This document shows, one piece after another, positions 55,228 through 63,981 of a DNA stretch of 64,000 bases. Within the stretch, counting starts at the first letter, position 1, and every line of letters starts with the position of its first letter. The DNA comes from Candidatus Latescibacterota bacterium (lineage in GTDB: Bacteria; Latescibacterota; UBA2968; GCA-2709665): positions 96,001-160,000 of the forward strand of contig CAXXJS010000010.1 in NCBI GenBank assembly GCA_963662665.2, written 5' to 3'. Both the position numbers and the translations under genes were made by a program. Below the pieces are notes generated by a model. The model searched no databases, was not told the DNA's origin, and saw only the letters and a list, made by a program, of their open reading frames with translations.

Positions 55228-55959
55228 ATGACAAGACTCCAGGGTAAGGTCGCGCTGGTAACCGGCGGAAACCAGGGCATCGGAAAGGGCATCGCGCGGG
55301 CGCTGGCGAAAGAAGGCGCGGATCTTGTGATGACCGCCAGAACAATCGATAAGCTCGAATCTGCGGCGGAAGAGATCAGATCGGAGGGCGTGGAGGCGCT
55401 GGTCGCACCCGCCGACGTCACCGACGAATCGCAGGTGGAGGCCGTGTTTACCCAAACGATGGAACGGTTCGGGAGGGTGGATATTCTGGTCAACAACGCG
55501 GCGGCATTCGACGGGGGACCTATCGACGAACTTTCAGCATCCGCCTGGGATTGGGCAATGGCCGTAAATCTGCGCGGTCCCTTTTTGTGCACGCGGGCGG
55601 CGTTTCGCATTATGAAAAAACAGGGCGGTGGTCGGATCATCAATATAGGCAGCATTTCCGCTCAGCGGGTTCGTCCAGGTTCCGCTCCGTACAGCACGAG
55701 CAAATTCGGCATCACGGGCCTGACCCATGCCACGGCGCTGGACGGCCGGAACCACGGGATCGTCTGCTCCTGCCTGCACCCCGGCAATACCCTGGTGGAA
55801 CGTCGTGACGAATCCGACGCGCCAACGGACGATGAACCCATGATGACGGTGGATGAGCTGGCCCAGGCTGCGGTGACAATGGCCACGCTGCCGCTCCACG
55901 TCAACATGCTTGAGGCAATCGTTTTGCCCGTGGGGCAGTTGTACGTTGGGAGAGGGTGA
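55228..55959 (+). CDS. SDR family oxidoreductase
   Basis: GKVALVTGGNQGIG, VNNAA, YSTSK. Confidence 0.9.
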   Translation: MTRLQGKVALVTGGNQGIGKGIARALAKEGADLVMTARTIDKLESAAEEIRSEGVEALVAPADVTDESQVEAVFTQTMERFGRVDILVNNAAAFDGGPIDELSASAWDWAMAVNLRGPFLCTRAAFRIMKKQGGGRIINIGSISAQRVRPGSAPYSTSKFGITGLTHATALDGRNHGIVCSCLHPGNTLVERRDESDAPTDDEPMMTVDELAQAAVTMATLPLHVNMLEAIVLPVGQLYVGRG

Positions 55960-56124
55960 ACGGATACCGGTTTATTTTCGGCCATACCCGGATCCGGGAC
56001 CGGGTTCAGGCCAAAGACGTCCACGGGAATGAAAGGCGGCTTTACAGGGGCGGAAGATACGATCGCAAGGCCCGCATCGCAGATACTCAGGATTGACGGG
56101 TTTCTTTCTGCTTTCCGGATCTTA

Positions 56125-56287
56125 GAAGCTGTCTTAAAACCCCCAATGGTCTTCGCGCGGCTGCAAAAGCGCCGGTCGGCGTTGGTCAAATCCACCCTTA
56201 TCTTTAAGATAGGGGCGGATTTTCCCGCCTTGACCACCACTTTTTCGCTCGCGCTCGGGAACTCACCGGTAGTTTCAAAACAGCTTC
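56125..56287. mobile_element. Second MITE-like element (~163 bp)
   Basis: TIRs GAAGCTGTCTTAAAAC / GTTTCAAAACAGCTTC (14/16 match); internal hairpin GGTCAA-ATCC..CCCTTATCT/AGATAGGGG..TTGACC; flanked by TTA and CTA. Confidence 0.6.
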
Positions 56288-56344
56288 CTATCCTGCCCAT
56301 CCTGTTCATCCAGGTGTTTGAATTAATTCAGATTTGGAATTTTC

Positions 56345-56373
56345 TTGACACCCGCGATATGATTGTTTAATGT
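56345..56373 (+). promoter_or_regulatory. trp operon promoter
   Basis: TTGACA-17 bp-TAATGT. Confidence 0.7.
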
Positions 56374-56456
56374 TAAACGGTTCCTATTGCCGTTCGGCGT
56401 AAAGAGGCGTCTAAACGAAAACGGCTGGAACCTGGATCATGAGAGGAACGGAAGCG

Positions 56457-56561
56457 ATGGATCTCGGTCGGAACAGGTTTTCCCGGCGTGGATATTTTTA
56501 TCGCTCCTACCGGTGGTATTACCGGGAGGCTGCGGAACGTCATGTCTGCCCACGCGAGTAA
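56457..56561 (+). CDS. Attenuator leader peptide (Tyr/Phe/Trp-rich)
   Basis: MDLGRNRFSRRGYFYRSYRWYYREAAERHVCPRE*; GAGAGGA upstream; alternative in-frame ATG at 56439. Confidence 0.75.
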   Translation: MDLGRNRFSRRGYFYRSYRWYYREAAERHVCPRE

Positions 56562-56585
56562 ACCGTTGACAGAATCGGGAAATGC

Positions 56586-56615
56586 GCCGTGGGCATCTGC
56601 TCACGGTTTTTTTTT
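56586..56615 (+). terminator. Attenuator terminator
   Basis: CCGTGGGC-ATCT-GCTCACGG followed by T9; competing antiterminator TGCCCACG (56547-56554) pairs with CGTGGGCA (56588-56595). Confidence 0.85.
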
Positions 56616-56633
56616 ATCCATTCGAAACCTTAA

Positions 56634-56740
56634 CAGTCCGTTGATATAGTCGCTCTGCAGGCGAGGTGAGGTGTCCCGTCCCGGAAATATGTCACCATTC
56701 ATCCGCCGATTCATCCCGGATGGACGTTCTCAACGGACTG
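56634..56740. mobile_element. MITE-like element (copy B, inverted relative to copy A)
   Basis: First 33 nt are a 32/33 reverse complement of 52455-52487; the other end CCCGGATGGACGTTCTCAACGGACTG matches the left end of copy A; interior differs. Confidence 0.75.
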
Positions 56741-56856
56741 TTTGACCGTGATGCGATAGGGCGCCGGTCCTGGCCGGCTGGCTAGCAACCGCTCGTCCGG
56801 CGCAATGGAAAGCCGATTTCTGTTTGACGACTCCTGAAAATATCTTTGGCAGCCAG

Positions 56857-58347
56857 ATGAAACGCTTGAACACCCCCGATTTTAAAACTTTGAAACCGCT
56901 GGCCGAAGGCCGAGGCCTGGTCCCGATTTCCAGGGAAATCCTGGGAGATACGGAAACCCCGGTATCGGCCTACCTTAAACTCCGGCAGAGGAGTCCCTAC
57001 AGCTTTTTGTTTGAGAGCGTGGAGGGCGGAGAGAATATCGGGCGTTATTCTTTCCTGGGAGTGGAACCGTTTCTTGCGTTCAGGTCGTGGAAATCCAGGA
57101 TAGAGGTGGAGGATCTGAATCTGGGCGAGGTTCGTGTATATGAAGGGTCGCCAATTGCCGAACTCAGGCGTCTGCTGAAAAAATACCGATCAGCGCAATT
57201 GGAGGGACTTCCCAGATTTACCGGAGGGGCTGTGGGCTACGTGGGCTACGACGCAATCCGGCTGGTTGAGAATATTCCGGACAGCACGCGGGATGACCGC
57301 GGGCTACCTGACGTCGTATTGCTTTTCTACGATACGCTTCTTGGCTTCGACAACGTCCGGCAAAAGATCCATCTGATTTCAAACGTGCATACATCCGGGG
57401 ATATTGAAGAGAATTACCGGGAAGCGGAGGCGCGAATCGATGTTCTGGAACGGAACCTGCGCGGGCCGATTCCCGCGAACGGCGTTACTGAACGTGCGCC
57501 CCCACGAGGCGCGCGCGCGATCCGGTCGAACACGGAGCGGTCCGAATTCCTGGAAAAGGTGCGGCGATGCAAGGAATATATCGTGGCGGGCGATATCTTT
57601 CAGGTCGTACTTTCCCAGCGTTTCGAGACCGATATAACCGTAGGGTCACTGGACATCTACCGCGCGCTTCGCACGGTGAATCCGTCTCCATACATGTTCC
57701 ATCTGAACCTGAAAGAACTCCAGCTTATCGGCGCGTCGCCGGAACTACTGGTCAGGGTCGAGAATGGCGTCGTACAAGTGCGGCCAATTGCGGGCACCCG
57801 GTGGCGGGGGGCTACGGACGCGGAGGATTCCGCACTCGAGGCGGATTTGCTGGCAGACGAAAAAGAACGTGCCGAACACATTATGCTTCTAGACCTGGGC
57901 CGGAACGACGTGGGGCGGGTATCCCGTTACGATACGGTCCGGGTAACGGAACAGATGACGATCGAGCGTTATTCTCATGTGATGCATATTGTGTCCAATG
58001 TTCAAGGGTATCTTAAAGACGGCGTGGATGCCCTGGATGCGCTTTACGCCTGTTATCCGGCAGGTACGGTTTCCGGCGCGCCAAAAATCCGCGCCATGGA
58101 AATTATCGACGAACTTGAACCCACACGCCGTGGACCGTACTCGGGTGCGGTTGGCTATATCGACTTTTCGGGCAATATGGACACCTGCATTGCCATTCGT
58201 ACGATGGTATTGCAAGGCAGCAAAGCCTACGTCCAGGCCGGTGGAGGAATTGTATTCGATTCCGTGCCGGAGAACGAGCACCAGGAAACTGTGAATAAAG
58301 CAAGGGCGTTGTTTAAAGCCGTGGAATTGGCGGAAGGTGCTCTCTAG
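56857..58347 (+). CDS. trpE: Anthranilate synthase component I
   Basis: ETPVSAYLKL, FLFESVEGGE..GRYSF, NPSPYM, SPELLV, PIAGT, EHIMLLDLGRND, PAGTVSGAPK. Confidence 0.96.
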   Translation: MKRLNTPDFKTLKPLAEGRGLVPISREILGDTETPVSAYLKLRQRSPYSFLFESVEGGENIGRYSFLGVEPFLAFRSWKSRIEVEDLNLGEVRVYEGSPIAELRRLLKKYRSAQLEGLPRFTGGAVGYVGYDAIRLVENIPDSTRDDRGLPDVVLLFYDTLLGFDNVRQKIHLISNVHTSGDIEENYREAEARIDVLERNLRGPIPANGVTERAPPRGARAIRSNTERSEFLEKVRRCKEYIVAGDIFQVVLSQRFETDITVGSLDIYRALRTVNPSPYMFHLNLKELQLIGASPELLVRVENGVVQVRPIAGTRWRGATDAEDSALEADLLADEKERAEHIMLLDLGRNDVGRVSRYDTVRVTEQMTIERYSHVMHIVSNVQGYLKDGVDALDALYACYPAGTVSGAPKIRAMEIIDELEPTRRGPYSGAVGYIDFSGNMDTCIAIRTMVLQGSKAYVQAGGGIVFDSVPENEHQETVNKARALFKAVELAEGAL

Positions 58348-58435
58348 TGTCCTGTCCCAGAACGCTAGTTGCCAGATGAAAATGCCCATTCGGGCATTAT
58401 GATGCCATCCTTCAACGATCACGTTCAATTGACCT

Positions 58436-58999
58436 ATGATTCTGGTAATCGACAATTACGATTCGTTCACTTACAATCTGGTTCAGTACCTGGGCGAGTT
58501 GGGTGCTCGGATGGACGTGTTTCGAAACGATCAGATCGAATTGGACAGGGTCGACGCGTCGGAACCGGATAAGGTGGTAATTTCGCCTGGGCCGTGTACG
58601 CCGAACGAAGCAGGAATCTCCGTGGAATTGATCCGGAGGTTTACCGGGCAGATTCCAATGCTGGGTGTCTGTCTGGGGCATCAGTGCATCGGACAGGCCT
58701 TCGGCGGCGCCATCGTAAGGGCTCCGGCCATACTCCATGGGAAGGTATCCGAGATCTATCACGACGGACGTACGATTTTCAGTGATTTGCCACAGCCCTT
58801 CGTTGCGACGCGATACCATTCCCTGATGGTCGAACGCGAGAGCCTGCCGGACTGTCTCGAGGTGTCCGCGCAGACAGATGACGGCATTATCATGGGACTG
58901 CGGCATCGGAAATATCCGGTTGAGGGGGTGCAGTTTCATCCGGAGTCGATCCTGACGGCAGCGGGCAAATTGCTATTGAGGAACTTTCTGGAGGGATAA
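58436..58999 (+). CDS. trpG: Anthranilate synthase component II (glutamine amidotransferase)
   Basis: [31 protein letters not shown]. Confidence 0.95.
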
Positions 59000-59054
59000 A
59001 TCCGGGAAGAGGAAAGCTGGCCCGGTTCTCTGTTTGAAAGTTGGGGAGACGGCT

Positions 59055-60074
59055 ATGGCGATACAGGATACGATTGGAAGGCTGATTGAGGGTCGGGATC
59101 TGCCGCGTCACGAGATGACAGCAGTGATGAACCAGATCATGTCGGGTGATGCGACGGACGCGCAGATCGGCGCGTTTCTGGTGGCTCTGCGTGTCAAGGG
59201 GGAAACCGTTGAGGAGATCGCGGGCGCCGCCGGGGTGATGCGTGAGAAGGCGACCCGGGTCGTAACGCGACATGCCACGGTGGTTGATACCTGCGGCACG
59301 GGAGGCGATGGGTCCGGAACGTTCAATATATCGACGGCGGCGGCCTTTGTGGCGGCTGGCGCGGGGCTGTGCGTGGCCAAACATGGGAACCGTGCGGCGT
59401 CCAGCCTGTGTGGCAGTGCGGATGTTTTGAAGGAACTGGGAGTAAATATCGAAGCATCGCCCGAGACGGTGGTGCGGTGCCTGGATGAGTTGGGCATCGG
59501 GTTTCTGTTTGCTCCGGCTTTGCACGGCGCTATGAAATATGCGATCGGACCGAGACGCGAGGTCGGCGTGCGCACGGTTTTCAACGCTCTGGGGCCGCTG
59601 ACCAATCCTGCAGGCGCAACCCGGCACCTGATAGGGGTATATGGTCAATCGCTGACCGACACGCTGGCCGAGGTGTTGCGTACATTGGAATCGGAGCGGG
59701 CGTTTGTGGTACACGGGCTGGACGGACTGGACGAGATCACCACAACCGGACCAACGCGGGTGAGCGAGTTGAAAGACGGAACCGTGTCCACGTATCAAGT
59801 TACGCCCGAAGACATGGGCATCGCGAGGGCTTCGGCCGGCGATCTGGCAGGAGGCAACGCGGAGACCAACGCCGCGATCCTGCGCAGGGTGCTGCATGGT
59901 GAGCCCGGTCCGCGGCTGGACATTGTCCTGTTGAACGCTGCGGCCGCCATTGTAGCGGGAGGCGCCGCAAACGATCTGACGTCCGGTATGGAACTGGCCA
60001 GGGAGACCGTGGATTCGGGGCGTGCCATGGACAAACTGGAAAAATTGAAACTCGTCTCGGGAGAGGGCGATTGA
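59055..60074 (+). CDS. trpD: Anthranilate phosphoribosyltransferase
   Basis: DTCGTGGDGSGTFNIST, AKHGNR, GPLTNPA, DGLDE. Confidence 0.97.
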   Translation: MAIQDTIGRLIEGRDLPRHEMTAVMNQIMSGDATDAQIGAFLVALRVKGETVEEIAGAAGVMREKATRVVTRHATVVDTCGTGGDGSGTFNISTAAAFVAAGAGLCVAKHGNRAASSLCGSADVLKELGVNIEASPETVVRCLDELGIGFLFAPALHGAMKYAIGPRREVGVRTVFNALGPLTNPAGATRHLIGVYGQSLTDTLAEVLRTLESERAFVVHGLDGLDEITTTGPTRVSELKDGTVSTYQVTPEDMGIARASAGDLAGGNAETNAAILRRVLHGEPGPRLDIVLLNAAAAIVAGGAANDLTSGMELARETVDSGRAMDKLEKLKLVSGEGD

Positions 60075-60161
60075 TATCGGGCGATTTCGCCGGTCACGCC
60101 CTGAACGTACCCCTTGAACGAGATGGCCGGAGTTCTTCCGGCGTTAACAAAGACGAGAAGC

Positions 60162-60953
60162 ATGGCTACGATTCTGGATGAGATTATAGCATATAAACGG
60201 CGTGTCGTGGCCGAGGCAAAAAAAAAGATCTCACCCGAGGAGTTACAGACGCGGTCGGACCTGGCCCGTGACCCGGACTCGTTTCTGGACAGCCTGACAG
60301 CCGCGGAGGATATCGCGCTCATAGCCGAAATCAAAAAGGCATCTCCGTCAAAAGGAGTGATCAGAGATGATTTCGATCCCGTGGAAATCGGCCGGGCTTA
60401 CGAGGTGAACGGCGCGTCGGCGATTTCGGTGCTGACGGACGTGAAGTATTTCCAGGGCTCCAATGCCAGTCTGAAGGCAGTAAGCGAAGCCGTGGAATTG
60501 CCGCTGCTCCGAAAGGATTTCGTGGTTGATCCTTATCAGATTCATGAAGCCAGATCAATCGGAGCGTCTGCCGTACTGCTCATTGTATCGGCGCTCTCGC
60601 ACCGTAAACTGGCAGGGCTGCTCGCCGATTGCAGGGAGTCGAAATTGGGCGCACTCGTGGAAGTGCATACCAGAGACGAAGCGAAGATGGCGCTTGACGC
60701 GGGAGCGGAACTTGTGGGGGTGAATAACCGCGACTTGAGGACCTTTACAACAGACCTGCAGACCACTTTCGACCTGATCGAACACCTGCCGGAAGACCTG
60801 GTAATTGTAAGCGAGAGTGGTATCGAGACCAGAGACCACGTGGTCCGATTGAGGGATGCCGGCGTGGATGCGGTACTGGTCGGGGAACATCTGATGCGAC
60901 ACCCCGACGTCGGCCGGAAGCTTCGAATGCTGTTGGGAAAGGAAGGCGGCTGA
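60162..60953 (+). CDS. trpC: Indole-3-glycerol phosphate synthase
   Basis: IAEIKKASPSKG, ISVLTD, LRKDF, GVNNRDL, SESGI. Confidence 0.97.
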   Translation: MATILDEIIAYKRRVVAEAKKKISPEELQTRSDLARDPDSFLDSLTAAEDIALIAEIKKASPSKGVIRDDFDPVEIGRAYEVNGASAISVLTDVKYFQGSNASLKAVSEAVELPLLRKDFVVDPYQIHEARSIGASAVLLIVSALSHRKLAGLLADCRESKLGALVEVHTRDEAKMALDAGAELVGVNNRDLRTFTTDLQTTFDLIEHLPEDLVIVSESGIETRDHVVRLRDAGVDAVLVGEHLMRHPDVGRKLRMLLGKEGG

Positions 60954-60961
60954 TTCAACCC

Positions 60962-61582
60962 ATGGTTCGGGTGAAGATCTGTGGCATCACGAATCCGGAG
61001 GATGCGCTCTTTGCGGCAGCACAGGGCGCGGACGCCCTGGGGTTCATATTTTATGAGCCCAGCCCGCGTTACGTGCATCCGGACCGTGTGGGCGAAATTG
61101 TGTCGGAGTTGCCGCCGTTCGTGATGCCCGTAGGGGTTTTCGTGAACGAGGCCAGGGAAGAAATCCTGAGTATCGTGCGGTCGACGGGAATCCGGGCGGT
61201 CCAGTTGCACGGCGACGAGACGCCGGCCGATTGTCTGGGATATCCGTTTCCGGTTATCCGGGCATTGCGGGTCGGCGACGGATTCGACCCTGCGTCCCTG
61301 AGTCACTATGCGGTAAACGCGTTTCTGCTGGATACGGCCAAAAAGGGATTGTACGGCGGCACCGGAGAGACATTTGACTGGCGGGTCGCCAGGGCGGCCT
61401 CGGCCCACGGTCGGATCATTCTGTCTGGAGGGATCGATCCGAAAAACGTGGCGGAAGCGGTCCGAATGGTGAATCCGTATGCCGTGGACTGCGGCAGCGG
61501 CGTTGAGGCCGCGCCTGGCAGGAAGGACCACAACAGAATCGCTGAATTCTTCGGGGCACTCTGCTTTGCAAACGTGAGATAG
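60962..61582 (+). CDS. trpF: Phosphoribosylanthranilate isomerase
   Basis: VKICGIT, QLHGDE, GGTGETFDW, LSGG, SGVE. Confidence 0.96.
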   Translation: MVRVKICGITNPEDALFAAAQGADALGFIFYEPSPRYVHPDRVGEIVSELPPFVMPVGVFVNEAREEILSIVRSTGIRAVQLHGDETPADCLGYPFPVIRALRVGDGFDPASLSHYAVNAFLLDTAKKGLYGGTGETFDWRVARAASAHGRIILSGGIDPKNVAEAVRMVNPYAVDCGSGVEAAPGRKDHNRIAEFFGALCFANVR

Positions 61583-61650
61583 ATTGCAGAAATCTGCGGC
61601 AATCAGCGAATTTTCGCTACATCAATCGAATCGATCCGGAGCCAAACATA

Positions 61651-62913
61651 GTGGACATATTGAAAGATCTGAACTTCCAGGGATATGTTTTTCAGGTAAC
61701 GGACGCCAACGGACTCAAGGCGTTGCTCGCCCGTGGACCGGTTTCGCTCTATTCCGGATTCGACCCCACGGCGGACAGCCTTCACGTCGGCAACCTGATA
61801 CCCATTCTGGGACTGCGGCGGTTTCAGTTGGCCGGACACCATGCAATCGGCCTCATCGGGGGAGGAACCGGCCTGATTGGCGATCCGAGCGGCAGCAAGG
61901 AGGAACGCAGTCTGAATCCACCCGACGTGATCGCGGCATATACGGAGAAACTGACTGAACAGCTGACAAGGTTCCTGGATTTCGAAACGGCAACCAATCC
62001 CGCGCAGGTAGTCAGCAATATGGGCTGGCTTTCCGAACTCAAGGCGATCGACTTCCTGAGGGACACGGGCAAGCATTTCTCAATGGGCTATATGCTGGCG
62101 AAAGAGTCCGTGGCTTCCCGGCTGGATTCCGGAATATCGTTCACCGAATTCAGCTATATGGTCATTCAGGCATACGATTTTATGGAGTTGTTTCGGACGC
62201 GCGGATGCAAGCTGCAAATTGGCGGGAGCGATCAATGGGGTAATATCACGGCGGGAATCGAGCTGATCCGTCGTCGACTGGGCGGGCAGGCTTACGGGCT
62301 GACGTTTCCACTGTTGGAGAAAGCCGACGGGTCCAAGTTCGGCAAGACGGCATCCGGTACCGTCTGGCTGGACGCGAGACGAACAACGCCCTATCAGTTC
62401 TATCAGCACTGGATTAATTCGGATGACCGGGACGTCGTGAAGTTTCTGAAGCTGTTTACGTTTCTCCCGGAGGGTGCGATTCGAAATCTGGAAATGGAGG
62501 TGGAACAACATCCGGAGAGGCGCGAAGCGCAGCGGGTGTTGGCCGAGGAGGTGACCACGTTCGTACACGACAGGTCCGCCACCGGCAGGGCGCGGCGGAT
62601 TTCCGAGGCCCTGTTTTATGGGGACCTGCGAAATCTGAGTGCGCAAGAGATAGAGGAAGGGTTCAGCGACGTGCCATCTCATTCGCTCAACGGCATTCCG
62701 GGAGTGGGCCTGGTGAATCTACTGGTAGACGTCCGCATTTCAACTTCCATGCGCCAGGCGCGGGAAGACATCAGATCCGGCGCGATTCATGTCAATGGCC
62801 GGCGTTGCACCGATATGGGCCGGATCCTTGAACCCTCAGACAGACTCGCCGGAAAATACCTGATCGTTCGCCGGGGCAAACGCCGCTACTTTCTGGTGCA
62901 CTGGAACAGTTGA
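61651..62913 (+). CDS. tyrS: Tyrosine--tRNA ligase
   Basis: GFDPTADSLHVGN (HIGH), QIGGSDQWGNI, KFGKT (KMSKS), C-terminal S4 domain. Confidence 0.97.
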   Translation: MDILKDLNFQGYVFQVTDANGLKALLARGPVSLYSGFDPTADSLHVGNLIPILGLRRFQLAGHHAIGLIGGGTGLIGDPSGSKEERSLNPPDVIAAYTEKLTEQLTRFLDFETATNPAQVVSNMGWLSELKAIDFLRDTGKHFSMGYMLAKESVASRLDSGISFTEFSYMVIQAYDFMELFRTRGCKLQIGGSDQWGNITAGIELIRRRLGGQAYGLTFPLLEKADGSKFGKTASGTVWLDARRTTPYQFYQHWINSDDRDVVKFLKLFTFLPEGAIRNLEMEVEQHPERREAQRVLAEEVTTFVHDRSATGRARRISEALFYGDLRNLSAQEIEEGFSDVPSHSLNGIPGVGLVNLLVDVRISTSMRQAREDIRSGAIHVNGRRCTDMGRILEPSDRLAGKYLIVRRGKRRYFLVHWNS

Positions 62914-63003
62914 CGGGCGGGTGTGCGGCCGCTTACGGGTATCGGAATGCAAATCAGGACACGCGGGACTCAGCTGGAAAACCAAGAGAGAGGATTCCTT
63001 ATC

Positions 63004-63981
63004 ATGAAAGCACCCTGGATTACGTATCGGCCGGAACTCAAGGTACTGGACTGTACAATTCGAGACGGCGGATTGATGAATGACCATCATTTCGCAGATG
63101 ATTTCGTGAAGGCCGTTTACGAAACCTGCGTTGAAGCAGGGGTCGACTATATGGAAATCGGGTACCGAAACTCCAAGAAATTGTTTCCCACGGGGAAATT
63201 CGGGGCCTTCCGACACAGCGACGAAGAAGATATCCGCAAGATAACGGGCGATCACGACCCTGAAACCACCGGCCTGAAGCTCGCGATTATGGCCGATGCC
63301 GGCAAGAGCGATTGGGCAGAAGACATCCTGCCGGCCAGCGAGAGCGTGGTTAGCATGGTACGCGTAGCCTGCTATGTCGAGCAGATCCCTGAAACCGTTG
63401 AAATGCTCTGCGACGCCCATGAGAAAGGCTATGAAACCAGTTGTAACATTATGGCCATATCGACGGTGCAGGAGGTTGAAATCGATCAGGCGCTCGACGT
63501 CCTGATACAGACGCCGGTTGGAACAATATGCGTTGTAGACAGTTTCGGCGCGCTGTACCGTGAACAGGTGGATATGCTCATTCGGAAATATATGGAAGCC
63601 GTCAGTGGAACGGGCAAGGAAGTGGGCATTCACGCGCACAACAACCAGCAACTGGCGTTCGCCAATACCCTGGAAGCGCTCATTCTGGGCGCCAACCGCG
63701 TTGATGCCACGGTGGACGGACTTGGACGGGGCGCGGGTAATTGCCCGCTTGAACTGCTGCTCGGTTTTCTGCGCAATCCCAAGTTCAAGATTCGACCCGT
63801 CTACAAGCTGCTGGAAGACCATTTTGTCAAATTGCGCGGTGAATTGACGTGGGGGGCCCTCGTTCCTTACAACATTACGGGCCAGCACAACCAGCATCCC
63901 CGCTCGGCAATGGCGCTCCTGGACGGTGACGACCGCAATCGCTATCTGGCGTTCTACGATCAGGTTATGCGGGATATCTAG
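63004..63981 (+). CDS. DRE-TIM metallolyase (4-hydroxy-2-oxovalerate aldolase-like catalytic domain)
   Basis: LDCTIRDGG, VDSFG, HAHNNQQLA, GRGAGN. Confidence 0.85.
   Translation: MKAPWITYRPELKVLDCTIRDGGLMNDHHFADDFVKAVYETCVEAGVDYMEIGYRNSKKLFPTGKFGAFRHSDEEDIRKITGDHDPETTGLKLAIMADAGKSDWAEDILPASESVVSMVRVACYVEQIPETVEMLCDAHEKGYETSCNIMAISTVQEVEIDQALDVLIQTPVGTICVVDSFGALYREQVDMLIRKYMEAVSGTGKEVGIHAHNNQQLAFANTLEALILGANRVDATVDGLGRGAGNCPLELLLGFLRNPKFKIRPVYKLLEDHFVKLRGELTWGALVPYNITGQHNQHPRSAMALLDGDDRNRYLAFYDQVMRDI

Follow-up and report, generated by a model that had tools for sequence, protein, structure and literature searches.

How is the aromatic amino acid operon that starts with trpE in a Latescibacterota genome controlled, and which amino acid does its leader sense? 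The DNA examined is a stretch of 64,000 nucleotides from Candidatus Latescibacterota bacterium (GenBank assembly GCA_963662665.2, contig CAXXJS010000010.1, positions 96,001 to 160,000 of the forward strand), which is called the window below; all coordinates are positions in it unless another locus is named. Upstream of trpE the window contains a promoter, a short open reading frame (ORF) with many Tyr codons and an intrinsic terminator. Our reading, to which we assign a probability of about 0.65, is that this unit is a ribosome-mediated transcription attenuator of the classical leader-peptide type, in which mainly Tyr codons, together with Phe codons and one Trp codon, would serve for sensing. 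The observations that carry this reading are the anatomy of the leader, its conservation, the covariation of the terminator and the match between the leader codons and the synthetase gene of the operon. Translation of the ORF, stalling of the ribosome and the identity of the sensed amino acids we infer from these. Internal labels used in the following stand for genera (g), families (f), genomes (G) and fetched loci (L).

The anatomy of the leader was read from the sequence and the ORF was obtained by translation. The following features, all located on the plus strand, were found:

56345..56373, +, promoter P1: TTGACA at 56345-56350, a 17-nt spacer and TAATGT at 56368-56373 (sequence read)
56442..56447, +, Shine-Dalgarno (SD) sequence AGAGGA, 9 nt 5' of the leader ATG (sequence read)
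56457..56561, +, leader ORF of 34 codons plus TAA, with the ATG at 56457 and the TAA at 56559-56561 (translation)
56485..56491, +, segment 1 (GGCGTGG), pairing with segment 2 in the predicted free leader RNA
56493..56522, +, aromatic codon cluster Y-F-Y-R-S-Y-R-W-Y-Y (codons 13-22), where the ribosome is proposed to stall (translation)
56503..56530, +, internal hairpin within the ORF, codons 16-25 (minimum free energy (MFE) and centroid structures)
56547..56556, +, segment 2 (TGCCCACGCG), forming the 5' side of the antiterminator, with its end 3 nt short of the stop codon (duplex search, Watson-Crick run test and fold)
56585..56595, +, segment 3, shared between the antiterminator (as 3' arm) and the terminator (as 5' arm) (fold and Watson-Crick run test)
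56586..56615, +, intrinsic terminator with a 9-bp stem (56586-56594/56599-56607), an ATCT loop and nine T (56607-56615) (terminator scan)

The leader ORF encodes MDLGRNRFSRRGYFYRSYRWYYREAAERHVCPRE, which contains 5 Tyr, 2 Phe and 1 Trp. Thus, 8/34 leader codons are aromatic compared with a background of 0.065 in the operon's own proteins (binomial P = 1.3e-3, for a frame that was chosen partly for its aromatic content). The SD sequence of the window forms a duplex with the anti-SD sequence at -6.6 kcal/mol. Segment 1 pairs with segment 2 through GCGTGG (56486-91) and CCACGC (56550-55), a pairing present in the MFE structure, in the centroid structure and in the duplex search. The antiterminator is formed by TGCCCACG (56547-54) and CGTGGGCA (56588-95), and the terminator was recovered independently by the terminator scan. 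The Watson-Crick run of segment 2 ends 5 nt before the stop codon, and 24 nt separate the last sensing codon from segment 2. This geometry, as read from the sequence, fits a ribosome that masks segment 2 when positioned at the stop codon and frees segment 2 when positioned at the sensing codons. At the level of sequence, all defining features of a leader-peptide attenuator are present in the window. The promoter, the 34-codon ORF, the aromatic codon counts, the three pairings and the terminator with its T-run all lie where the original prediction, made from the letters of this DNA, had placed them. Its statement that the ORF stops just past segment 2 also holds in the window, and this position is kept across the order. 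The internal hairpin, whose sequence is nearly invariant across the genus, is possibly a pause hairpin.

A leader of this design would work as follows. Transcription would start from P1 and a ribosome would translate the 34-codon leader. With plentiful aromatic aminoacyl-tRNAs the ribosome would reach the stop codon and cover segment 2 (56547-56556), segment 3 would pair with segment 4 and the polymerase would terminate at the T-run 56607-56615. With scarce Tyr-tRNA, or also with scarce Phe-tRNA or Trp-tRNA, the ribosome would stall in codons 13-22, where it would cover or abut segment 1 and leave segment 2 free. Segments 2 and 3 would then pair, and the polymerase would read on into a supraoperon of about 14 genes, comprising the Trp branch, steps of the common shikimate pathway, chorismate mutase and prephenate dehydrogenase as well as the only tyrS. 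Tyr would be the main input here, and Phe and the single, poorly conserved Trp codon would be lesser inputs.

Judged by its sequence, this scheme is the same as in trpL, pheL and hisL. The E. coli trpL attenuator, which carries W-W-R, likewise consists of a promoter, a short sensing ORF, the 1:2, 2:3 and 3:4 pairings and an intrinsic terminator followed by trpE, and relatives of the window in family f3 carry W-W-R as trpL does. In contrast to trpL, the sensing codons are here mostly Tyr (5) with two Phe and one Trp, the ORF has 34 codons and segment 2 lies inside the 3' end of the ORF. Furthermore, the operon studied here also contains aro genes, tyrA and tyrS, and the Trp_leader model of Rfam gave no match.

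The leader is conserved in relatives. The region 56331-56628 was 74-85% identical in 14/14 genomes of the same genus, and the genus alignment retained the promoter, the SD sequence, the reading frame, the stop codon, segment 2 and the terminator. The hexamers of P1 were kept in 15/15 genus sequences, and TTGACA-17-TA(A/T)TCT was present in other genera. Relatives within the genus have GGAGGA before a GTG start located one codon upstream of the ATG of the window. For the order 53 genomes were examined, of which 3 ended at contig borders without upstream DNA. A homologous leader ORF of 25-43 codons (W 1-2, Y 2-6, F 1-5) followed by a terminator was found upstream of trpE in all of the evaluable genomes (50/50), and also in 20/20 loci fetched from two further families of the class. 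The spacing between stop codon and segment 3 amounted to 27-38 nt in 48/50 order leaders. Among the leaders of the class the mean number of aromatic codons was 8.4 in frame 0 compared with 2.5 and 2.3 in the other frames, frame 0 being the top frame in 68/70 leaders and having been selected partly by aromatic content.

Within the genus, six Tyr/Phe positions were aromatic in 72/72 cells of the alignment, and the sole changes were TAT/TAC exchanges or replacements of Y by F. The alignment of trpE upstream regions, which had been proposed as a check, consequently found the aromatic codons kept in relatives. The single Trp position of the window is the least conserved aromatic position, with W in 7/12 genus leaders. 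A Trp codon at position 11 is better kept in the genus, but reads CGG in the window. The variable columns of the genus alignment were distributed over codon positions 1/2/3 as 10, 13 and 16. This lack of a third-position excess fits a leader whose peptide itself would not be under selection.

The pairs of terminator and antiterminator were counted in 47 distinct sequences (alignment A1). Terminator pairs were formed in 98.9% of the cells compared with 26-50% after the partner had been slid, and 3 pairs had changed on both sides in a compensatory manner, in 21 cells. Antiterminator pairs were formed in 76.9% of the cells compared with 37-50% for slid partners. Segment 2 has a TGCCC core that does not vary across the order; this core is read in two phases, and in 2 genomes it is located 3' of the stop codon. 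A core that is kept in two reading phases and even outside the ORF points to a constraint on the RNA and not on the peptide. The 8-bp Watson-Crick run between segments 2 and 3 of the window was reached by 0.3% of 300 shuffled sequences (p = 0.003), and the corresponding run had p <= 0.05 in 22/22 genomes of the window's family.

The leader codons correspond to the synthetase gene of the respective operon. In 47/53 order genomes tyrS was found 4-7.5 kb downstream of trpE on the same strand. Of the remaining 6 genomes, 4 are cut by contig ends, 1 yielded no tyrS match (82% complete) and 1 is G034, which is considered below. Tandem Trp codons occur in 0 leaders of tyrS-bearing operons, i.e., they are absent from 52/52. 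Genus g13 of family f4 has an extra tyrS in the operon (2/2) and a second tyrS elsewhere, and its leaders contain YYY or YY with a single W. The operon of sister family f3 has the order trpEGDC-trpS-tyrA-aroA-aroE. In this family trpS is linked in 17/18 genomes, tyrS is located elsewhere and the leaders are of the Trp type, e.g., MTDNRTDNPRRWWWRFWSYE, with tandem WW or WWW in 16/17 and 0-2 Y. Genus g16, also of family f4, has no synthetase gene in the operon and a leader with WW and no YY. Altogether, tandem Trp codons were observed in 17/18 class leaders of trpS-bearing or synthetase-free operons, along with few Tyr codons. In other classes of the phylum 7/16 trpE loci carry a W-x-W leader (2 of the 7 were read by eye) with no synthetase gene within 9 kb, and the remaining 9/16 have no leader.

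A parallel is found within the same genome. Its trpS (contig C32, L022:1284-1510) has its own promoter TTGACA-17-TATCGT and a WWW leader, MAARIDISGSWWWYDANRTGRLTAC, followed by a 10-bp terminator hairpin with T-run and then by the SD sequence and ATG of trpS. This unit is kept at the DNA level in 14/14 genomes of the genus. Judged by these sequences, trpS stands behind a leader with a run of Trp codons, and the operon that holds tyrS behind one rich in Tyr, in one and the same genome. A crude genome-wide scan for a small ORF followed by a terminator yielded 360 candidates, 15 of them with amino-acid runs. Only two of the candidates, the trpE leader and the trpS leader, were convincing; the others lack an amino-acid-related gene downstream, according to inspection by eye of the first 70 residues. 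At the thresholds of this crude scan no leader for His, Leu, Thr or Phe emerged, which does not by itself establish their absence. The two types of TyrRS found in the same slot after trpF in different genera are about 28-33% identical (L141:5023-6246, L144, L193 and L195 compared with 61651-62913 of the window) and both score above 350 bits with TIGR00234. This looks like non-orthologous replacement in place.

It had been proposed that one attenuator may integrate the charging of tRNA-Tyr, tRNA-Trp and tRNA-Phe. The part concerning Tyr agrees with the presence of tyrS and with the codons of relatives, which follow the synthetase; for Trp the window has one codon, at a position that is W in 7/12 genus leaders. 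We rate it as slightly better than an even chance that the leader represents the first natural tyrosine-sensing ribosomal attenuator, gating aromatic synthesis together with the sole tyrS, and that it is a member of a leader family that extends through the phylum, has no match in Rfam and had its codons rewritten to suit the captured synthetase (Tyr runs with tyrS, Trp runs with trpS or none). If this is true, the leader family would be a natural codon-swap series, and the leader would make Trp, Tyr and common-pathway genes, and tyrS with them, depend on aromatic tRNA charging. The example would come from poorly studied, largely uncultured lineages of the FCB group that use almost no T-boxes, and would thus concern synthetase regulation outside the Firmicutes. 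With Tyr-type, Trp-type and W-x-W-type leaders on homologous scaffolds, the evolution of attenuator specificity along with operon content would become testable. The family could also be modelled for RNA family libraries, which would improve the annotation of these genomes.

Known RNA elements were searched for in the locus. An Rfam scan of 55900-63200 found no family at E <= 1, including Trp_leader and T-box, and a scan of the distal operon stretch L027 gave no family match. In nine related loci the sole Rfam match was to an unrelated small RNA family with E = 0.73. A T-box riboswitch was rejected, there being no RF00230 match in 55900-63200. The single T-box match of the genome lies elsewhere (G000:C50:93564-93851) and with 70.8 bits remains below the Rfam cut-off. 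TRAP control was rejected as well: no array of at least 5 (G/U)AG triplets was found in 56374-56860, and PF02081 (TRAP, mtrB) was not found in the genome, which is 92% complete, in a search that did detect the B. subtilis control. Among titled TrpE loci the nearest are L051 (72% identity; Latescibacteria bacterium UBA2968, FCB group) and L052 (60%; uncultured Gemmatimonadaceae bacterium). The Firmicute and T-box frame in which the original prediction had set the locus is therefore inapplicable, given one weak T-box match below threshold and nearest titled TrpE relatives among metagenome-assembled genomes of the FCB group.

Among systems already described, the Firmicute tyrS T-box resembles the proposed attenuator in its input, the charging of tRNA-Tyr, and in its output, read-through of a terminator; unlike the attenuator, it reads uncharged tRNA directly without translation. 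B. subtilis has an aromatic supraoperon aroFBH-trpEDCFBA-hisC-tyrA-aroE that contains no synthetase gene and whose trp genes are under TRAP. Like the operon studied here it unites trp, common-pathway and Tyr-branch genes in one unit; the differences are TRAP control, with TRAP not found here, and the missing synthetase gene there. Work on the aroR leader of Corynebacterium glutamicum is reportedly that of Neshat et al. 2014. This leader shares mixed aromatic codons in the leader peptide with the present one, and differs, as far as the accessible part of the source goes, in having three aromatic codons and no Trp, in controlling no synthetase or trp genes and in belonging to a different phylum. 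According to the same part of the source, aroR lies upstream of aroF, encodes Phe-Tyr-Phe and controls the DAHP synthase operon by ribosome stalling (PMC11802643). Synthetase genes behind leader peptides are described in the accessible parts of the sources for E. coli pheST and for Streptomyces trpS and leuS (PMC11802643, PMC1262725). As far as these descriptions extend, the leaders are rich in the amino acid of the respective synthetase, to which the WWW leader of trpS in the present genome is a direct parallel. In contrast to these cases, tyrS is here the sixth gene of a biosynthetic supraoperon and not the first gene after the leader.

In the open full-text literature, with subscription-only papers and supplements outside the search, no Tyr-codon leader, no attenuated tyrS and no account of trp regulation in Latescibacteria was found. 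The attenuators whose descriptions were found, in sources accessible in part, sense one amino acid or the branched-chain set, and the one mixed aromatic case is reportedly insensitive to Tyr. The remark of the original prediction that it knew of no description of this regulatory logic is to be narrowed: as far as the accessible parts of the sources go, mixed aromatic leaders and attenuated synthetases have precedents in aroR, pheST, trpS and leuS, and what did not turn up in the literature is a Tyr-codon leader for tyrS. The Tyr-dominated leader, with neither an Rfam match nor a description in the searched literature, is most likely a new form of a textbook mechanism.

Several results weigh against the reading of the leader as a Tyr-sensing attenuator. 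Among the sequencing runs screened for signs of expression, no RNA run containing the locus turned up. The 5-bp core of the antiterminator is invariant and therefore shows no covariation; only 1 flanking pair covaries. The proposed check by covariation of the four segments was consequently positive for the terminator (3 pairs) and not for the antiterminator core. Segments 2 and 3 share a short Watson-Crick run in sister family f2, where only 3/28 genomes reach p <= 0.05. Segments 2 and 3 alone fold at -21.2 kcal/mol, which is unremarkable (z = -1.67), the folding energy of the whole leader has z = -1.55 with 16/200 shuffles folding equally well, and the segment 2:3 duplex energies (RNAduplex) are no better than those of shuffles (median z -0.88, p <= 0.05 in 8/50). 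When a ribosome footprint was simulated, the MFE structure dropped the terminator at some codon in only 14/50 leaders. In the window the terminator was lost for A-site codons 8-14 and 20-27 and not for codons 15-19, so that folding with simulated footprints, another of the proposed checks, agrees with the expectation in part. Because attenuation is a kinetic choice, we regard the energy results as uninformative rather than negative; they still lend no support. In the E. coli trp leader, too, the terminator exceeds the antiterminator in stability, and for this reason the footprint result is not counted as a refutation.

Further objections arise from the genomes and from the operon. In G034 of genus g6 the only tyrS match lies 1.85 Mb from trpE and the leader still reads YYY; this genome is a counter-example to the pattern of codons and synthetases, or may have been rearranged recently. 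Since relatives are not independent, the whole pattern amounts to about two or three evolutionary contrasts. Within the operon the coding strand has an excess of promoter-like sites (10 vs 3.6 +/- 1.7 in shuffles), and a promoter-like site matching 9 of 12 positions (56622-56650) overlaps a repeat between terminator and trpE. As tyrS is present once and presumably essential, some expression independent of the attenuator must exist, for which leaky termination or internal promoters could be the source. Finally, transcription behind C. glutamicum aroR is, according to the accessible part of the source, unaffected by Tyr availability and responds to Phe (PMC11802643).

The last point leads to the alternative that the attenuator is real and senses a single amino acid, Trp or Phe, with the Tyr codons as passengers maintained by RNA-structure constraint or drift. 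Much of the aromatic cluster lies within the conserved hairpin, so that nucleotide constraint could mimic codon conservation, and the leader family outside the order is of the Trp type (W-x-W or WW). G034 has a YYY leader without linked tyrS, and aroR transcription is raised only by Phe limitation according to the accessible part of the source (PMC11802643). We consider this alternative unlikely in view of the single Trp codon of the window, which is W in only 7/12 genus leaders, whereas the Tyr/Phe positions are aromatic in 72/72 cells with synonymous TAT/TAC exchanges. Moreover, Tyr runs accompany a tyrS in the operon and are absent where trpS or no synthetase gene is present, and the operon includes tyrA, chorismate mutase and DAHP synthase genes beside the trp genes.

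Termination might also be controlled independently of translation by a protein or a small ligand that binds the leader RNA, comparable to control by TRAP, PyrR or a riboswitch, in which case the ORF would be incidental. An ORF with SD sequence, start and stop codon was kept in all 70 class leaders tabulated despite strongly diverged nucleotides, and the aromatic excess is confined to one frame. Neither an Rfam family at E <= 1 nor a (G/U)AG array was detected, and no TRAP gene was found in the 92% complete genome. Even with the very high nucleotide conservation of 56486-56530 within the genus and the variable ORF columns that lack a third-position excess (10, 13, 16), such control appears improbable. 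Still less credit is given to the explanation that promoter, small ORF and terminator form an independent small gene for a peptide or a small RNA and that the trp genes are transcribed from a separate downstream promoter. Genera g2, g4, g5, g7, g8, g9 and g10 and family f4 indeed have a conserved promoter-like element (CTTGACAA, about 17 nt, TATTA-like) between terminator and trpE, and the window has the 9-of-12 site at 56622-56650. However, the T-run is only 8-13 nt away from trpE in 12/20 g6 genomes and at most 61 nt away in 10/15 genomes of the window's genus. With the terminator so near, trpE can be reached there only through the terminator, and there is no space for a second promoter. In addition, the leader unit was found only directly upstream of trpE, and its stop codon and segment 2 occupy the positions expected of a classical attenuator.

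The second promoter-like element CTTGACAA was recorded at L042, L043, L044, L047, L048, L132, L134, L135, L148, L149, L156, L173 and L174 and is absent from the window's genus and from g6. It is followed by a partly palindromic AT-rich stretch, e.g., CTATCTTGATAAAATTTCGATAG. By its sequence the element may be a repressor-controlled second promoter.

Downstream of the leader the window contains the following genes and, between terminator and trpE, a repeat:

56857..58347, +, trpE, the first structural gene (NCBIfam TIGR00564, 600.7 bits)
58436..61582, +, trpG, trpD, trpC and trpF (NCBIfam matches)
61651..62913, +, tyrS, with a GTG start and GGAG 10 nt upstream (TIGR00234, 386 bits)
62923..63981, +, HMGL-like gene (Pfam PF00682)
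56629..56718, no strand assigned, dispersed short repeat between terminator and trpE, outside the attenuator (blastn)

No tyrS other than that of the operon was found in the genome, and each of the 14 other genomes of the genus likewise has a single copy. The tyrS of the operon follows trpF after a gap of 68 nt that contains no terminator. Beyond the end of the window, where trpB comes first, lie trpB, trpA, aroQ (AroQ chorismate mutase), aroG (DAHP synthase) and tyrA (prephenate dehydrogenase), and further distally aroA (EPSP synthase), aroE (shikimate dehydrogenase) and ubiE. The whole appears to be an aromatic supraoperon of about 14 genes, trpEGDCF-tyrS-X-trpBA-aroQ-aroG-tyrA-aroA-aroE-ubiE, whose distal genes would be transcribed together with the others. 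No strong terminator was prominent on the coding strand of the operon stretches, and terminator-like matches were no commoner than in shuffles. Gene order was identical in 11/11 relatives fetched from both families of the order. The operon had originally been described as trpEGDCF-tyrS; NCBIfam matches bear out the gene names, and the proposed end at tyrS has to be given up, as the operon continues through the HMGL-like gene to ubiE.

The promoter-like sites inside the operon are located at 58178-60172 of the window, an example being TCGACA-17-TACAAT (58449-58477) at the start of trpG. By their sequence such sites could be internal promoters from which distal genes, tyrS among them, are expressed at a basal level.

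Only genera g1 and g6 have the HMGL-like gene between tyrS and trpB. It is 87-95% identical between them, compared with about 60-75% for its neighbours between the same two groups. This far higher identity suggests recent transfer or strong constraint. On the minus strand the gene is overlapped by an antisense ORF of 353 codons (62836-63897) without a Pfam match.

The repeat at 56629-56718 is an insertion found at this site in this genome only and seemingly consists of two sub-repeats. Together with the promoter-like site that overlaps it, the repeat may loosen control in this strain. It gave 90 blastn matches in the genome, of which 7 extend over 75 nt or more, and every genome of the genus contains many copies.

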